NCBI RefSeq assembly: GCF_056746865.1
Contig: NZ_CM163382.1
Direction: 5' to 3' (one strand)
DNA: 64,000 nt
Below the pieces are notes generated by a model. The model made no database searches, was not told the origin of the DNA, and worked only from the letters and a program-made list of their open reading frames with translations. Within the stretch, counting starts at the first letter, position 1. Each line of letters starts with the position of its first letter. The position numbers were made by a program, and so were the translations under genes. Shown one piece after another: positions 7,949-42,086 of this stretch.

Positions 7949-10216
7949 TTACGCTTTCACACACATAACGTGGTAAATACCGTCAATAATTTCTGTCCCT
8001 TCTGTTTCGTGTTCAAACCCAGGGAAATGATGGTCCCAGGATTGCAGCGAGCGTAAATAACTTACTTGCGGACTGTTTTTATCGCCGAAGTTTTCACCAG
8101 ACAGCAGCATCGGGATTCCTGGCGGATACGGGATAACTGAGTTTGCCGCGATGCGTCCTGGCAGATTTTCAATGGATACCAGTTCGACATTGTTGTCGAC
8201 AATCGCGTTGTACGCTTCACGTGGGGTGATTTCCGCCACCGGCAGGCCGGAATAGGCTTCGTTCAACCGTGCGCCAGGGTTGTTTTCTTTCAGCCAGGCA
8301 AACATGGTGTCACCCAGATCGTGAATCCCCATGTTCGCGTAAGTGTCAGGATATTGTTCAACAAGTTCCGGCATCACCTGCGCCAGCGGGGTGTTGGCGT
8401 CATAGTGGCGTTTGAAGGAGCAAAGGGTGTTAACCAGAGTCCCCCATTTCCCACGGGTCACGCCCATAGAGAACAGGAACATAATCTGGAAGTCAGTGGT
8501 ACGGGTAGGCACAATGCCGTGGCGACCAAGCCAGGCTGTGACCAGCGCCGCCGGAACACCGGTTTCTTCCAGTTCACCATCTTCACCCATTCCCGGAGCA
8601 AGGATGCTGACTTTAATCGGGTCGAGCATACTCCAGTTATCCGGAATATCTTTGAAGCCGTGCCAGCTTTCGCCCGGATGCATGACCCAGCAGTCCTGAA
8701 CGGTGGTCAGCAGTTTGGTTGGTGCGTCAGCAAAGTCATAGGTTTTGCCGGTTTGTGGGTCGGTGACGACTTCTTTGTTCCACGGTTTGAAGAACCAGCT
8801 ACCGTCAGCGGTGAACTCTTTATACAGCCGCGCCATCGCCTGACGGAAATCAACCGCTTCGTCGATCACTTCCTGCGTCAGTGACAGGCCGCTGTTGCCG
8901 TCCATCATGGACACCGCCACGTCGTTGGATGCGCAGATGGCATACAGCGGGGAGGTGGTGGCATGCATCATGTAGGCCTGGTTGAAGCGGGAGAAGTTAA
9001 TCGCCCCACGACCTTCACGTACATGAATATAAGAGGCCTGTGACAGCGCATTCAGCAGTTTGTGGGTGGAGTGGGTGGCGAAAACGGTAGGACCGTTGTG
9101 ATCGCCAGGTTCGCCGCGCATGGCATAGTGATCGGCATAGATCGGGTTGAAACGTGCATAGCCGTACCAGGCTTCGTCAAAGTGCAGACGATCGGAGGTT
9201 TTTTCCAGCAGATCCTGCGCTTCTTTAGCGTTATAACACACGCCGTCATAGGTGCAGTTGGTCACCACGCAGTAAGACGGTTTTTGCCCGGCTTTGTCTT
9301 TAGTCAGCGGGCTTTCACTGATTTTCTTCTGCAAGGTTTCAGGTTGCATTTCCTGCGGATAGATTGGCCCGATAATGCCGTAGCGGTTGCGGCTTGGCAC
9401 CATGTAGACCGGTTTCGCGCCTGTCAGCATCAAGCCTTGTTCGATGGATTTATGGCAGTTACGGTCAACGACCACGACATCGTTATCGGTCATGCAAGCC
9501 TGCATGATGGTGCGGTTAGAGCCGGAAGTACCGACGACTACCGACCAGGAGCGATCGGCACCAAATACGCGTGCGGCATATTTTTCGCTTTCGCCAAATG
9601 CGCCAGTATGGTCAAGCAAAGAACCGAGGGAAGTGCGTTCGATGCCCATGTCGGTGCGGAACAGATTTTCACCATAGTAGTCATGGTAGAAACGTCCGGC
9701 GGGTGTTTTAGTAAAACCAACGCCGCCCTGGTGGCCAGGTGCTGCCCAGGAATATTCATGGATGTCGCTATATTTCATCAGCGCGCTGAACAGTGGCGGC
9801 AACAGCTGCTGGCGGTAGCGGGTCATCGCGGCAACGGCGCGTCCGGCGATAAAGTCGGCGGTATCTTCCAGAATCCAGGCGAATTCATCGACAAGCTCCA
9901 GCAGATCCCGGTCCATTGCGGCGAGGGCTTTTTCCCGATCGCCCAACAGGAAGACCGGCACGTTTTGTTGGCGCTCATGAAGCTTACCGATCAATTGTCT
10001 GACGTTTTGATGTTCGTCCGGATGTTCCATTTGATAGCTGAACATCAGGCAGTCAATGGCTTCGTTTGAAGAGAGAATGGCAAAACCATCATCAAAGGAG
10101 GTGGATTTAATCACGGTAACATTTTGCTGGCTTAAAGCATCTGCCAGACGCTCAACGGCGTTACCGACCCAGGTGTCTTGATGGAGAAACTCGCTTTCAA
10201 CAATTAATACTTTCAT
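7949..10216 (-). CDS. adiA: Biodegradative arginine decarboxylase AdiA
   Basis: 756-aa ORF (MKVLIVESEF...), PLP fold-type I decarboxylase; paralogous to cadA in same window. Confidence 0.95.
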   Translation of the reverse strand: MKVLIVESEFLHQDTWVGNAVERLADALSQQNVTVIKSTSFDDGFAILSSNEAIDCLMFSYQMEHPDEHQNVRQLIGKLHERQQNVPVFLLGDREKALAAMDRDLLELVDEFAWILEDTADFIAGRAVAAMTRYRQQLLPPLFSALMKYSDIHEYSWAAPGHQGGVGFTKTPAGRFYHDYYGENLFRTDMGIERTSLGSLLDHTGAFGESEKYAARVFGADRSWSVVVGTSGSNRTIMQACMTDNDVVVVDRNCHKSIEQGLMLTGAKPVYMVPSRNRYGIIGPIYPQEMQPETLQKKISESPLTKDKAGQKPSYCVVTNCTYDGVCYNAKEAQDLLEKTSDRLHFDEAWYGYARFNPIYADHYAMRGEPGDHNGPTVFATHSTHKLLNALSQASYIHVREGRGAINFSRFNQAYMMHATTSPLYAICASNDVAVSMMDGNSGLSLTQEVIDEAVDFRQAMARLYKEFTADGSWFFKPWNKEVVTDPQTGKTYDFADAPTKLLTTVQDCWVMHPGESWHGFKDIPDNWSMLDPIKVSILAPGMGEDGELEETGVPAALVTAWLGRHGIVPTRTTDFQIMFLFSMGVTRGKWGTLVNTLCSFKRHYDANTPLAQVMPELVEQYPDTYANMGIHDLGDTMFAWLKENNPGARLNEAYSGLPVAEITPREAYNAIVDNNVELVSIENLPGRIAANSVIPYPPGIPMLLSGENFGDKNSPQVSYLRSLQSWDHHFPGFEHETEGTEIIDGIYHVMCVKA

Positions 10217-37031: not shown

Positions 37032-37850
37032 TCAGCGCAGGCTCTCCAGCATCGTTTCTGCCATCACCCACAATGCGCGGTTGAGTTTAATATCGGTGTC
37101 GATGCTGTGAATGGCCCGGGTATGGATACGTTTTCCTTTTGCACTGCGACCGGAAATCCCGCCTTTCAGCATATTCTCCTGGATGGTCTGATATGCGCTC
37201 CACAGGTCCTTACCGTAATCCTCCCGGCGTCGCGGCGTCAGAATGTCGGCGGTGGTGACGGGCTGATGTTCGTCACCATAACGGTAAGTCAGTGCCGCCT
37301 GTGCCAGCGCCTGGCGTGCCGGTGGCGGCAGGACCAGCGACTGCATGGCATCACGCTTCTCCTCTATCCGGTCAAACACGCCCACCACTTCGTAAGCCCC
37401 TTCAATGACTCTGTCCACCACATTTCCCCGGTGCGGAACACGCACTTCCCCCAGAGACTGGCCACAGACGCACCCGTTCTGGCAGACGAACCTGAAGTAA
37501 CCCGGCAGCATCTGGTAGCTGGAGGTACCGTCATGAGAGTTGAGCAGAATAATTTCAGGGACATGTTCTCCGTTTATCTCTCCGGCCCGCCGCAGACGCA
37601 GCATGTGTTTGGTATATTCCCGGCGGCTCTGGTCGCGCACACGGGTCTGGCAGGCGAAGAACGGCTGAAAGCCTTCCCGCTGCAGATTTTCCAGGACGGT
37701 AATGGTGGGAATGTACGCATACCGTTCACTGCGGGAGGTGTGCCGGTCTTCTCCAAAAATACTCGGGACGTGGTACATCAGTTCTTCGCGTGTCAGTGGG
37801 CGCTCCCGACGGATCTGATTTACATGACCAAAACGACTGGCTAATTGCAT
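37032..37850 (-). CDS. DUF932 (YfjQ/YafZ-like) family protein
   Basis: 272-aa ORF in CP4-like module. Confidence 0.75.
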   Translation of the reverse strand: MQLASRFGHVNQIRRERPLTREELMYHVPSIFGEDRHTSRSERYAYIPTITVLENLQREGFQPFFACQTRVRDQSRREYTKHMLRLRRAGEINGEHVPEIILLNSHDGTSSYQMLPGYFRFVCQNGCVCGQSLGEVRVPHRGNVVDRVIEGAYEVVGVFDRIEEKRDAMQSLVLPPPARQALAQAALTYRYGDEHQPVTTADILTPRRREDYGKDLWSAYQTIQENMLKGGISGRSAKGKRIHTRAIHSIDTDIKLNRALWVMAETMLESLR

Positions 37851-37939
37851 ACTTTGCTCCTTATGAATGAATTAGCGGTATAAACGAAAAAGCCGCGTCT
37901 CCCGGAGAAGACGCGGCCTGATGGATGAAATGAAGACGT

Positions 37940-38173
37940 TTATTGCCTGAGAATTCCCTCACTGGCGAGATACGAATTTAGCTGTTTTCCGGCATCAGGT
38001 TCAAAATTCCAGCACCGCCAGCGTAGCTGCCCTTCGGCATTGCGGATAACCAGCCGGAAATGCGTTCCCTGGTCATCTTCAATAAGCACATTGCGGTAAG
38101 CTGTTGTGACGGCAACCGCCTGTTCGCGTGAGAAAGGGCCTTCGGGCAATAAAACAGGGTGGCAGTCCGACAT
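37940..38173 (-). CDS. DUF905 (YkfF/YpjJ-like) small protein
   Basis: 77-aa ORF; family assignment by recall and context. Confidence 0.6.
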
Positions 38174-38178
38174 ACCGA

Positions 38179-38856
38179 CTATTTTCCGATAAATTCAACG
38201 CTGGCGCTGGTGGCATTACCGTCAGCACCAACCGTGACGGTCACTTTGTCGTACGCACGGTCTTCAGGATTGAATACTTCAAACTCAACCTTATTGCCTT
38301 TTACTTCGTAAGAGCCAAAATCAGCGGTTTCTGTTGTTTCCTCGTCATATTCCCGGGCGTATGCCTGCCGGGCAGCCTGCAGGACGGAATCTTTATTAAT
38401 AGTGGTCGTCTGTTTCGGGGAAAAACCGGCAAGTGATGTGACAAATTTCGGACAGACCTTCAGCATATCACCGCGGGTGAATTCCATTCGTACACCAAAT
38501 GCCTGTAAAACGGACACATCACGCTCTGCTATGGAGTGAACGGCTTTTTTGACCATTTCCGGCGCCTGTCCGATTTCCACCTCAACAGCCCTGAATCCCG
38601 TCTGCTGATTACACATTTGTGATGTGGGGATCAGGTTACCGTTAATACTGATACGGCTGCCCAGGAGCGTCTGTACACCATTCGGGCATCCCTGCATCAG
38701 GCCAGTAATACCAATCGTGCCATTTTTCAGCATTACCAGCGCCTGACCATCTTCCGTCATGGTCTGACACCAGCCGTTTTTGACAGCCCAGTTGCCGGCG
38801 GAGGCGGAGAATGATGCCACAGTGAACAGCAGGGGAAAAAGAGCTCTGGTATTCAT
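38179..38856 (-). CDS. Predicted exported protein of unknown function (signal peptide)
   Basis: ORF 38179..38961 trimmed to [23 protein letters not shown]… (Sec signal peptide, AxA cleavage site, GAGG RBS); no family recognised. Confidence 0.6.
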
Positions 38857-39003
38857 GACTGACCTCTGAAATGAACGTACGGTGTTATTGATAATGATGG
38901 AAGGTATGCAGTGACTGTTCAGGGAATGACGTAGCCGTATATTTAGTTTTCTGTTCAACATATTGTCTCCATACCTGTCGGGACGGCTTTGGCAGGCCGG
39001 CGA

Positions 39004-39684
39004 TCACAGGTTAAAGGTGTTGATAAGTTTATGGATGAAAGAGAAATGTGGCAGGGCGGAGATAAAACGCTCTTCAGCGACCAGACTGTGGATGTGGCCT
39101 CTCCGTTCAAACCGTTCTGATGTCAGGCTGACTGATTTGATATCTGCCAGAGGAAAGACCTGCAGTTTTCCCTTCTGTAACGCGATCAGATACCAGCTAC
39201 CGCTGTAATAAATGAGCCGGCAGGGCTCCAGTGACGGATACCATCGCTCAGTCATCAGAGAGATGTGGATACACTGTCTTATTGCCAGGATGAGTTGCGA
39301 GAAACACTCGGGGAACGTTGCAGTGATATCCGGCGCCGGTAGCCAGATAAGGCAGGGAGAGGGCTCCTGGTTGTCGGTAAGACAGGTTATCAGTCGTCCG
39401 TTCCGGAGCGGAAGTATCCGTGCGATCCCGGTATTCTGTATAAAAGAAAGCATTTCAGGGATCGCACCTGGGCTGCTCTGTCGTCTGAGACTGTACCGGC
39501 CATTTCTGTACTCTAAGTCCAGGTGAACCAGACGCTGATGAAAATCGCGCTGTAAAGTACGTTCTGTAACGCCAAATTCATCTGACAGTGTTTTTAGTGA
39601 CAGAGATTCTCCGGCCATCAGTCGGCTGATAATGAGTGATAAGCGAACCGCCAGGCGATCATGCCGGGAACGATTATCAGACAT
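39004..39684 (-). CDS. WYL-domain transcriptional regulator (YfjR-like)
   Basis: 226-aa ORF with N-terminal HTH (…LSDEFGVTERTLQRDF…) and C-terminal WYL-type domain (…YSGSWYLIA…). Confidence 0.7.
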   Translation of the reverse strand: MSDNRSRHDRLAVRLSLIISRLMAGESLSLKTLSDEFGVTERTLQRDFHQRLVHLDLEYRNGRYSLRRQSSPGAIPEMLSFIQNTGIARILPLRNGRLITCLTDNQEPSPCLIWLPAPDITATFPECFSQLILAIRQCIHISLMTERWYPSLEPCRLIYYSGSWYLIALQKGKLQVFPLADIKSVSLTSERFERRGHIHSLVAEERFISALPHFSFIHKLINTFNL

Positions 39685-39886
39685 AGATGTGCACTCCGTA
39701 AGAAAACATCTTTTATTTCATGATGTTATTATGCATCATGATGTTGAAAGGATGTGTCGCATCCGGATAATCAGGAATAAAATGCAGCAGAAAAAATATT
39801 CTTTTAATTATCTGATTTTTAAGCATGATTTCATAAAAAGAAGAATGCTTGTTAATCCAGCGACACATCCTGTCGGCGTGAGTGTG

Positions 39887-40771
39887 TCAGAACAGACGAT
39901 CCCACAGTGTGACCAGCAAGTGGATAATGCGGTCCCGGGCCTTACGCAGAAGCTGTAACATCCAGGCCGGAAAGCTGAATTGGGCAACGGCAGCGTCAAA
40001 GCTTTTCCCGATGGCGTCACCAAAAGTTTGTTGTGCGTGTTTCCGGGCCTGTTCAGAGCGGTTTTCCCCCCGGATATGTGAATAAACTGCGCTGGTTGCC
40101 TGTGGTGGCAGTGCGTGGATCATCAGCGACACCAGTGCCGGAAGATTCCAGCCGACAGGTGCGGCAACGGAGAGTACCGGAAATGATGACGGGAACAGGG
40201 TTGCCACCCGGGCTGTTACTGTCGCCAGTGAGAGTTCCTGCTGACGGGACGGGCATTTTTCTGTGTCGTTCCATTCTTCAGCAGGAAACACGCGATCGGC
40301 ATGGCTGAGAACAAACAGAAAACGCGAGGGATCTGCACCTTCATTCAGTAAAAACTGATGCATGGCAATATCAGCAGCATACGCACGTTCATCAGCCCGC
40401 AGGATCCAGATAATCAGATCCAGTTCCGGCAGTAACTGACGGTAAAGCTCCCGGTATTCCTGATCATGCTGCGGTGTCTCACCAATGCCGGGCATATCGA
40501 CCAGCGTCATTCTGCGTTCACCGAGCTGCAGGGTAAGACGATGAGCCTGGCGGGTGCAGCCGTTCAGGGGATGCGTGGCGCAGATACGGGACTGAAAAAT
40601 GGCATTACACAGACTGCTTTTGCCGGTGCCGGATTTACCCATAATGCCAATTACGGGCTCGTAATGAATAACACCGTGGAGATGTTCAAGGATTTTCTGG
40701 CGAATTTCTTCAGGAAGAAACGTCAGATATGATTTTACTTGTGCAGAGAGGGAAGAATGGCTGAATGACAT
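39887..40771 (-). CDS. P-loop GTPase, YfjP/YeeP/YkfA family
   Basis: 294-aa ORF with G1 motif GIMGKSGTGKSS and G3 motif DMPGIGE. Confidence 0.8.
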   Translation of the reverse strand: MSFSHSSLSAQVKSYLTFLPEEIRQKILEHLHGVIHYEPVIGIMGKSGTGKSSLCNAIFQSRICATHPLNGCTRQAHRLTLQLGERRMTLVDMPGIGETPQHDQEYRELYRQLLPELDLIIWILRADERAYAADIAMHQFLLNEGADPSRFLFVLSHADRVFPAEEWNDTEKCPSRQQELSLATVTARVATLFPSSFPVLSVAAPVGWNLPALVSLMIHALPPQATSAVYSHIRGENRSEQARKHAQQTFGDAIGKSFDAAVAQFSFPAWMLQLLRKARDRIIHLLVTLWDRLF

Positions 40772-40955: not shown

Positions 40956-42086
40956 ATGACCGGACGTAAAAACAAATGTGTCAGAAAAAATTGTAACAAT
41001 CAGGTTTTCTCAGTAAAAATGGCAGTGGAGAAAAGACTGTGCAGAAAACATTATGAGAGGTTTTGTGAGCTCAAAAAAAGAAGAGAGCAAAATCCTGTTC
41101 ACAGATTAAATGAAGCATTGCCAAGAAAGATAAAAGGACCAAAAAGTAAGAAAAAATTAGTAAAAGAAAGAGAAATCATTAACAGCAGAAAAAAACATAA
41201 ACAGGAGCAGGGACCATCGCTGACTGAACTTAATAAAAAAGTTCGTGAGATACTGAAAACTCCTGCATGGAGAACGCTGGAAACGAGAATTCGAAGAAAC
41301 GGAATCACATTTAAGTCAAAAGCAGAGTTAGATGCGCTTTCTGAACTTTATGCAATTTATTCATGGGTTTCATATTGCAAACGGGGCGATAATTATTCTG
41401 TGTGGTTTTTGAATTGTCCGGATGTAAATATAAACCTTCATGTGTGCGAATGCCGGTCTTCTGAAAGCGATTGTTATCTGCCATCTCGTTTTATTATTCT
41501 TCCAGCTCCATTAAGGCAAAAAGTAAAAAGAAAATACTCGGCTAATTCGTCTGGGGTACCAGGACATAATGATTCAAAAAGTCTTTATAAGACAGTTTTG
41601 TCTGTTTGTGGTGGGAAAAGAGAAACCGAATTGTTCTTTTATTCACTGCCAGTAAAGACTAATCATCATCCTTACTGGATTAAAAGTGGTGTGGTTAAAA
41701 GATTTCCTCCTGTTTTTGGTTTGTTGTTTTATGAACAGGAAAGATTAACAGGAGGTGTTTTTCGTTATGTGTTGATAAGGTTTTATAATACTTTTAAGGA
41801 GAATTTGTTTTTTGTTGAGATTGTCTCGTGCTGTTTTCTTGTTGAGCTTTTTCATGATATTGATTCGTTTTTTATAAATCAACGATTAAGTAAGCTGGAA
41901 AGTTTTATAGATAAGTGGAGGGAGGGTAAAGAAATCTGGATAAAAGCATATCTACAACTGATACATAATACATTGGGAATAACTGAAACAGAAAAACTCG
42001 TCAATCTATATAATTCATTTTTTACTGATAAAGTGGTTATCTGGGATGAATCAGTAAAAAAAGTTAAGTGGATTTATGAGAAATAG
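40956..42086 (+). CDS. Orphan hypothetical protein in AT-rich cargo locus (Lys/Arg- and Cys-rich N-terminus, aromatic-rich C-terminal half)
   Basis: 376-aa ORF with GGAG-like RBS (ggagatgagagg) before ATG; markedly AT-rich codon usage compared with flanking genes; no family recognised. Confidence 0.6.
   Translation: MTGRKNKCVRKNCNNQVFSVKMAVEKRLCRKHYERFCELKKRREQNPVHRLNEALPRKIKGPKSKKKLVKEREIINSRKKHKQEQGPSLTELNKKVREILKTPAWRTLETRIRRNGITFKSKAELDALSELYAIYSWVSYCKRGDNYSVWFLNCPDVNINLHVCECRSSESDCYLPSRFIILPAPLRQKVKRKYSANSSGVPGHNDSKSLYKTVLSVCGGKRETELFFYSLPVKTNHHPYWIKSGVVKRFPPVFGLLFYEQERLTGGVFRYVLIRFYNTFKENLFFVEIVSCCFLVELFHDIDSFFINQRLSKLESFIDKWREGKEIWIKAYLQLIHNTLGITETEKLVNLYNSFFTDKVVIWDESVKKVKWIYEK

Follow-up and report, generated by a model that had tools for sequence, protein, structure and literature searches.

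A 64,000-nucleotide (nt) stretch of contig NZ_CM163382.1 (RefSeq assembly GCF_056746865.1), which is called the window here, carries a gene for a 225-amino-acid (aa) exported protein within a CP4-like island module. We refer to this gene and its product as X. Alignments of its relatives make it very probable that X belongs to an undescribed protein family. The place that the gene occupies, behind genes for a GTPase and a WYL regulator, is a site for envelope cargo, and X is a regular occupant of this slot. The window copy is a recombinant, in which a WYL-type backbone has received an X cassette from a GTPase-X-type island. As an overall explanation we offer, tentatively and with less than even confidence, an exported slot protein that belongs to a WYL operon and has a binding or exclusion role. 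X is common and was already deposited as a 'hypothetical protein'. The family definition, the export logic, the two-domain model, the fidelity to the island slot, and the origin of the window copy by recombination are new. None of the findings on X would surprise a specialist.

The open reading frame (ORF) of X starts with an ATG at 38856 and ends with a TAG stop at 38179, comprising 225 codons and the stop codon. RefSeq annotates the identical ORF (WP_001097302.1) in a 100%-identical E. coli chromosome. The Shine-Dalgarno sequence of X has its counterparts in TGAGG of a plasmid copy and TAAGG of Klebsiella, and its purine-rich core is kept in contexts without the WYL gene. Counted at a coverage of at least 80%, X occurs at 2405 places in the set of 5426 complete E. 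coli genomes; 1833 of these genomes carry it, with up to five copies each. The ratio of nonsynonymous to synonymous substitutions (dN/dS) is 0.11-0.12 against the Klebsiella orthologue, which is 61% identical, and indicates that X is under purifying selection. This ratio and the presence in so many genomes rule out a chance ORF. The window contains no further member of the family, and a literature search on the X accession and on yfjS/yfjT returned nothing relevant.

The absence of a recognisable family, as stated in the original prediction, was confirmed by homology searches. X had no match in Pfam, NCBIfam, PADLOC, or the PDB sequences (phmmer), and only a chance-level match in PHROGs (E 0.06). 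Distant family members gave nothing consistent against the same libraries (Pfam, NCBIfam, PADLOC, and PHROGs). A set of 5.8 billion proteins and a phmmer search of 1.84 billion representative proteins returned only unnamed relatives without Pfam domains. The phmmer search was exhaustive and gave 57 matches only, with E-values from 3e-84 to 1e-5. These matches include distant full-length relatives of 180-490 aa with 25-44% identity. The close relatives of X (55-98% identity) are found in E. coli, Klebsiella, Citrobacter, Enterobacter, and Lelliottia, and all of them are unnamed. Among the matches that carry a source name, the family is named only from Enterobacteriaceae.

Alignment reveals a modular family. 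Domain A, of about 120 residues, is common to every member, and six of its residues (W23, C30, C57, N72, C82, and C135 in X) are invariant in alignments of members down to about 20% identity. The resulting pattern, W-x6-C ... C ... N ... C ... C, is found in X together with an export signal. An optional linker in the family carries a G-Y-E-K..D-G-x-W-x-K-K-S motif, domain B has about 70 residues, and the longest members add a further C-terminal domain (NAFCTLDNGK...). Profile searches with domain A and domain B against the PDB gave chance-level matches only.

Origins outside the island were also considered. A phage origin of X was rejected, as a tblastn search of 50,697 phage records gave no match. 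A copy with 98% identity to X is present on one IMG/VR contig, and a Foldseek search of X against BFVD returned nothing but unnamed phage proteins, about 140-150 aa long, with query-normalised template modelling (TM) scores of 0.35-0.40. A plasmid origin was rejected as well; only five records match, and in both of those inspected X lies within the same island module. A family member with 34% identity is located at 8001-8693 of a 49-kb contig (L004, Logan SRR33371455) that resembles an unknown phage, with tightly packed ORFs on one strand, an endolysin, and almost no PHROG matches. There, the family member is followed by three small membrane proteins.

The N-terminus of X has the features of a signal peptide for the Sec pathway. 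Arg4 constitutes the n-region, the hydrophobic core spans 12 residues (5-16) with a maximum 11-residue Kyte-Doolittle value of 2.06, and A18-S-A20 occupies positions -3 to -1 before Gly21. The clear Sec signal that had been claimed for the 225-aa product is therefore supported by canonical n-, h-, and c-regions with an AxA motif, which are conserved in relatives. Ala18 and Ala20 are invariant across 20 homologues despite the drifting sequence of the h-region. No further hydrophobic segment was found in X beyond the signal, and the window protein has no lipobox, with residues 1-29 being free of Cys. An N-terminal export signal directly before the invariant Trp is present in all 34 family members analysed. 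The signal is of the signal peptidase I type in 28 of the 34, one of which (P0103) also has an ambiguous LLAC, and five (P0096, P0099, P0102, P0104, and P0106) have a clear lipobox. Asp at position +2, which leads to inner-membrane retention of lipoproteins under the Lol-avoidance rule, is found in four of these five lipoprotein paralogues. The mature part contains at least four Cys in each of the 34 members.

Since the signal is kept as a feature while its sequence drifts, and since four Cys are invariant, the family would work in the oxidising periplasm. This pattern is the strongest available evidence supporting periplasmic work of the X family. We consider it very probable that X is processed to a soluble periplasmic protein with disulfide bonds. 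Cleavage after Ala20 by signal peptidase I would give a predicted mature protein of 205 aa, with a mass of about 22 kDa and an isoelectric point of 5.2. The four invariant Cys probably form two disulfides that hold domain A.

Structure prediction, which had been proposed as a check, suggests two domains. The AlphaFold2 model, built from the 34-sequence alignment, has a mean predicted local distance difference test (pLDDT) score of 86, with values above 90 over most of both domains. Domain A of the model resembles only Bartonella IalB, and this weakly (5-10% identity). IalB itself (PF06776; PDB 3dtd sequence) gave no Pfam or sequence match for X. Domain B is modelled as a helix on a four-stranded antiparallel sheet, a fold shared with PepSY/cystatin-like domains such as those of YpeB, YpmB, M4/M36 propeptides, cystatins, and Cmi. 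X differs from these proteins in its unrelated N-terminal domain and in having no sequence-level relationship with them. The Pfam PepSY family (PF03413) had no match in the window protein and reached only E 0.03 in one of the 34 members, and the profile searches with domain B found no PepSY protein. Because no link to PepSY or IalB could be made at the sequence level, the model says little beyond a predicted two-domain, binding-type periplasmic protein without a recognisable catalytic site.

The position of X directly downstream of a WYL regulator was described correctly: the YfjR-like gene (39684..39004) lies on the same strand, with a spacer of 147 nt. The order on the minus strand of the window is GTPase, WYL, X, DUF905, hairpin, DUF932, antirestriction, RadC/JAB, DUF987, CbeA, CbtA, and further genes. 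Slot loci were checked in the window, L005-L010, L012-L014, L016, L017, L020, and L021. In all located relatives but two, the family member comes after a YfjP-like GTPase gene, usually after a YfjR-like WYL gene, and before DUF932. The order is GTPase-X-DUF932 in the Klebsiella loci (61% identity) and GTPase-WYL-X'-DUF932 for P0070 (27% identity). For the lipoproteins P0099 and P0101 (24-26% identity), it is GTPase-WYL-X''-DUF4234 membrane protein-DUF932. P0096 (about 20% identity) has a WYL gene upstream, and some E. coli copies and the plasmid copy of X occupy a GTPase slot without a WYL gene. There are two exceptions: P0063 adjoins a resolvase, and the contig of P0074 is phage-like. X is confined to the island module and to only about one third of E. 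coli genomes, so it is not a housekeeping periplasmic protein.

The original prediction regarded an exported protein as unusual in this block. This premise was wrong, because K-12 islands and the relatives of X put envelope cargo in the slot, which regularly holds family members, YpjK/YfjS/YfjT, or Ag43 with YeeR. In K-12 CP4-57 (L002 14446-15616), yfjR is followed by genes for the small membrane protein YpjK, the inner-membrane lipoprotein YfjS, and YfjT, which has a signal peptide. YfjS has Asp at +2, as is the case with four of the five lipoprotein paralogues of X. These three proteins resemble X in being envelope proteins 3' of a YfjR-type WYL regulator, and they are equally uncharacterised. 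The signal peptidase I signal of YfjT ends in ...ASFTASA, as against ...ASFSASA of X, but the mature parts are unrelated. Sizes and cysteine patterns of the three are unlike those of X. Relatedness of X to YfjS or YfjT was rejected with BLASTP E-values of 0.46 and 7 and hhalign probabilities of 2% and 1%. In K-12 CP4-44 (L018 7540-12312), the slot carries Ag43 and the inner-membrane protein YeeR. The slot thus holds envelope proteins only in both K-12 islands, and none of these K-12 proteins is related to X. Ag43 (flu), like X, is exported and is encoded at the corresponding place, with the island GTPase on one side and the RadC/CbtA block on the other. It is a 1039-aa autotransporter with a beta-barrel, whereas X is a soluble 225-aa protein without such domains. 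Many related islands, including both of these K-12 islands, are without X.

Rare E. coli islands, found in 4 of the 5426 genomes, have a 428-aa allele of the inner-membrane lipoprotein type in the slot (LTGC|DY, Asp at +2). This allele (L012 8001-9940; L014 8001-9900) carries an additional domain at its C-terminus, and a DUF4234 multi-pass membrane protein comes next. A frameshift splits the lipoprotein gene in the slot of L014.

The evidence for a recombinant origin of the window copy comes from comparison of the window with L014. The GTPase (93.5% identity), WYL (97.8%), DUF932 (93.4%), and RadC (98%) proteins are closely similar, and the slot protein is only 24% identical. According to blastn, the DNA homology of the backbone to L014 ends at 38919 and resumes at 38153, 20 nt inside DUF905. 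In E. coli islands without WYL, homology to the window begins at 38913-38917. A relic start of a lipoprotein-type paralogue remains upstream of X and is fused to it in frame, which gives a 260-aa ORF at 38961..38179. This relic start and the breakpoints near 38913-38919, shared with the WYL-less islands, are the reasons for reading the window copy as a recombinant. The event is an allele replacement inside a fixed backbone, with breakpoints at about 38919 and 38153. At least 1605 E. coli genomes share this WYL-X junction.

The region 5' of the WYL gene contains possible control sites. A 15-nt element (GACAGGATGTGTCGC) occurs there in two inverted copies, at 39874..39860 and 39760..39746, and promoter-like hexamers (39834..39807) are located between them. 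In L012, both copies change together from GGATG to GGTTG. A GCATAATAAC..CATGAAATAA motif (around 39735-39710) is conserved in four divergent loci in which the WYL proteins are only 50-68% identical. The 15-nt elements and this motif are candidate operators of YfjR-type regulators. In the 147-nt spacer between WYL and X, no inverted repeat, conserved element, or operator candidate was found, and no terminator-like site was predicted between the WYL stop and X. A putative terminator hairpin would close the WYL-X-DUF905 unit, so that the CP4-like module splits into at least two transcription units. X and DUF905 are probably co-translated. It is rather likely that the window X is co-transcribed with WYL and DUF905, from a promoter 5' of WYL to the hairpin at 37919..37890.

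If WYL, X, and DUF905 form one unit, the WYL regulator would set the expression of X. Given the terminator after DUF905 and the candidate sites 5' of WYL, the simplest reading is that the unit may be autoregulated by the WYL protein. Genomic SELEX (systematic evolution of ligands by exponential enrichment) places K-12 YfjR on its own operon (PMC8249747). WYL regulators elsewhere repress defence operons and respond to single-stranded DNA, and control of defence genes is common among them (PMC9122601, PMC11662680). The WYL protein of the window (226 aa) is shorter than these defence regulators, which have a wHTH-WYL-WCX architecture (wHTH, winged helix-turn-helix).

As for function, X may bind rather than catalyse, at the periplasmic face of the inner membrane; we regard this as a possibility of modest weight. 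Such a protein would block or neutralise an envelope-crossing agent, that is, phage DNA-injection machinery, a conjugative mating channel, or a toxin that acts in the periplasm. X would then be an accessory protein of the exclusion or immunity type. Its alternative alleles, either soluble or inner-membrane lipoproteins with extra domains, would give different specificities. This role is favoured because of the inhibitor-type fold, the lack of a catalytic signature, the existence of alleles tethered to the inner membrane, and the swapping of alleles in a mobile, defence-rich island. That WYL regulators often control defence genes also speaks for it. The fold of domain B is that of protein inhibitors and propeptides (cystatins, PepSY of YpeB/YpmB, fungalysin propeptide, and latexin), and also that of the periplasmic colicin M immunity protein. 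No match to a catalytic family was found in Pfam or NCBIfam for X, nor in Pfam for the 34 members. TrbK of RP4, TraS/TraT of F, and phage superinfection-exclusion proteins are, like X, small, located in the envelope, and encoded by mobile elements. Among these, TrbK is a lipoprotein of the inner membrane, like the lipoprotein paralogues of X. Homology of X to these exclusion proteins was not found in Pfam, NCBIfam, PHROGs, or PADLOC. The island of X encodes no transfer apparatus of its own, unlike conjugative elements with entry exclusion.

A more specific form of the proposal, which we consider unlikely, makes X and its paralogues the effector of an inducible exclusion module at the envelope level under WYL control. 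On entry of the island or a competitor into the cell, the YfjR-type WYL protein would respond to single-stranded DNA in the manner of CapW and DriD and induce a binding protein, either periplasmic or tethered to the inner membrane, that keeps out further phage or conjugative DNA. Swappable alleles, namely the soluble 225-aa type and the lipoproteins of 336-490 aa with their DUF4234 partner, would set the specificity.

Several points weigh against a WYL-linked exclusion role. The original prediction had suggested surface exclusion, periplasmic defence, or virulence, and no homology supporting any of these was found in Pfam, NCBIfam, PHROGs, or PADLOC. X showed no homology to an exclusion, immunity, or defence protein, and PADLOC and PHROGs were negative for the distant members as well. 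Export and disulfide formation of X are themselves predictions. A start at the relic ATG would add a basic extension of 35 residues to the precursor, which may affect export. The identity of X between E. coli and Klebsiella is 61%, compared with 53-72% for its neighbours. As X is no more diverged than its neighbours, the 225-aa type carries no arms-race signature, and the idea of a hypervariable arms-race gene was rejected for this type. Variability appears to lie in swapping between distant alleles. The connection with the regulator is not constant either, as X follows the GTPase without WYL in some E. coli (L016, L017) and in the examined Klebsiella loci, although at most about 228 of the 1833 carriers are without the WYL-X junction. 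The WYL link of X in the window is secondary, a recombinant junction. Furthermore, no DNA binding by K-12 YfjR was found by ChIP-exo, an exonuclease-based form of chromatin immunoprecipitation (PMC8464067).

Other explanations were weighed against the binding or exclusion role. Like other cargo of the slot, X could be a factor for adhesion, biofilm formation, or host interaction that alters the surface or envelope and thereby promotes aggregation, biofilm, or invasion. We consider this improbable. Features of an outer-membrane anchor, a beta-barrel, an autotransporter, or a pilin are missing from X. Its relatives are soluble proteins or lipoproteins of the inner membrane, so that X would not be expected at the cell surface. 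The likeness to IalB is weak, the Pfam IalB model matches none of the 34 members, and a biofilm role of YfjR was not validated. Slightly less probable still is a periplasmic accessory intrinsic to the island, which would serve the GTPase/DUF932/antirestriction module, for example by docking to a helper conjugation apparatus, rather than protect the host. However, many islands have the same module without X. The window protein is also without a membrane anchor, unlike VirB8-type proteins, and the fold scores fail to separate VirB8-like from generic NTF2 or cystatin folds.

The relic start raises the question of which product is functional. A 260-aa form translated from the relic ATG (38961) would carry the signal internally and might be retained or anchored in the inner membrane, or be poorly exported. 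The relic keeps a strong GGAG Shine-Dalgarno sequence 6 nt before this ATG, invariant in four divergent loci; no in-frame stop precedes X, and the junction is widespread in E. coli. However, X keeps its own Shine-Dalgarno sequence and ATG, RefSeq annotates 225 aa, and only the 225-aa start exists in the WYL-less E. coli, plasmid, and Klebsiella contexts. Both precursors would give the same mature protein if cut at ASA|G. We give the longer form little credence. Least probable is a functionless passenger that hitch-hikes with a successful island. X has no known phenotype, annotation, or partner gene, and the window copy sits at a recombinant junction, which would suit a passenger. The low dN/dS, the intact gene in 1833 genomes, and the invariant Cys/Trp/Asn core across very distant members argue against it. 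An exported slot protein with a binding or exclusion role is thus the explanation that we prefer, at the tentative level stated above.

The features of the locus are listed in the table. Just beyond the GTPase gene, an AT-rich stretch contains a 376-aa ORF on the plus strand (40956-42086) with a Lys/Cys-rich N-terminus. At the matching place in E. coli strain 165 (NZ_CP020509.1), a carrier of X, RefSeq has a hypothetical protein (969 nt, about 322 aa).

Table. Features of the X locus, in coordinates of the window.
Feature	Position	Strand	Remarks
Gene X (225-aa precursor of exported protein)	38179..38856	minus	RefSeq WP_001097302.1, 'hypothetical protein'
Predicted Sec/signal peptidase I signal peptide, codons 1-20	38797..38856	minus	predicted cleavage before G21
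Domain A, about residues 21-140	38437..38796	minus	beta-rich; W23, C30, C57, N72, C82, C135; common to family
Domain B, about residues 155-225	38182..38394	minus	long helix on four-stranded antiparallel sheet; cystatin/PepSY-like fold
Shine-Dalgarno AGAGG of gene X	38863..38867	minus	7 nt 5' of ATG
Relic, first 14 codons (MLNRKLNIRLRHSL) of lipoprotein-type paralogue	38919..38961	minus	DNA alignment, blastn breakpoints, P0101/P0099 N-termini
YfjR-like helix-turn-helix (HTH)-WYL regulator, 226 aa	39004..39684	minus	43% identical to K-12 YfjR; probable first operon gene
Control region 5' of WYL gene	39746..39874	minus	inverted 15-nt elements, promoter-like hexamers, conserved motif
YfjP/YeeP-like GTPase	39887..40771	minus	upstream anchor of slot
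DUF905 gene	37940..38173	minus	starts 5 nt after X stop
Terminator-like hairpin	37890..37919	minus	13-bp stem, 8 G-C pairs, T-run; between DUF905 and DUF932
DUF932 gene	37032..37850	minus	downstream anchor of slot

About one third of complete E. coli genomes carry X, often in several copies, and the protein has no database name or family. It gives a testable handle on what YfjR-type regulators control and on what the envelope cargo of common islands does. If X is not exclusion or immunity cargo, it is an ordinary accessory gene. If it is, X would add a periplasmic layer to island-encoded defence.
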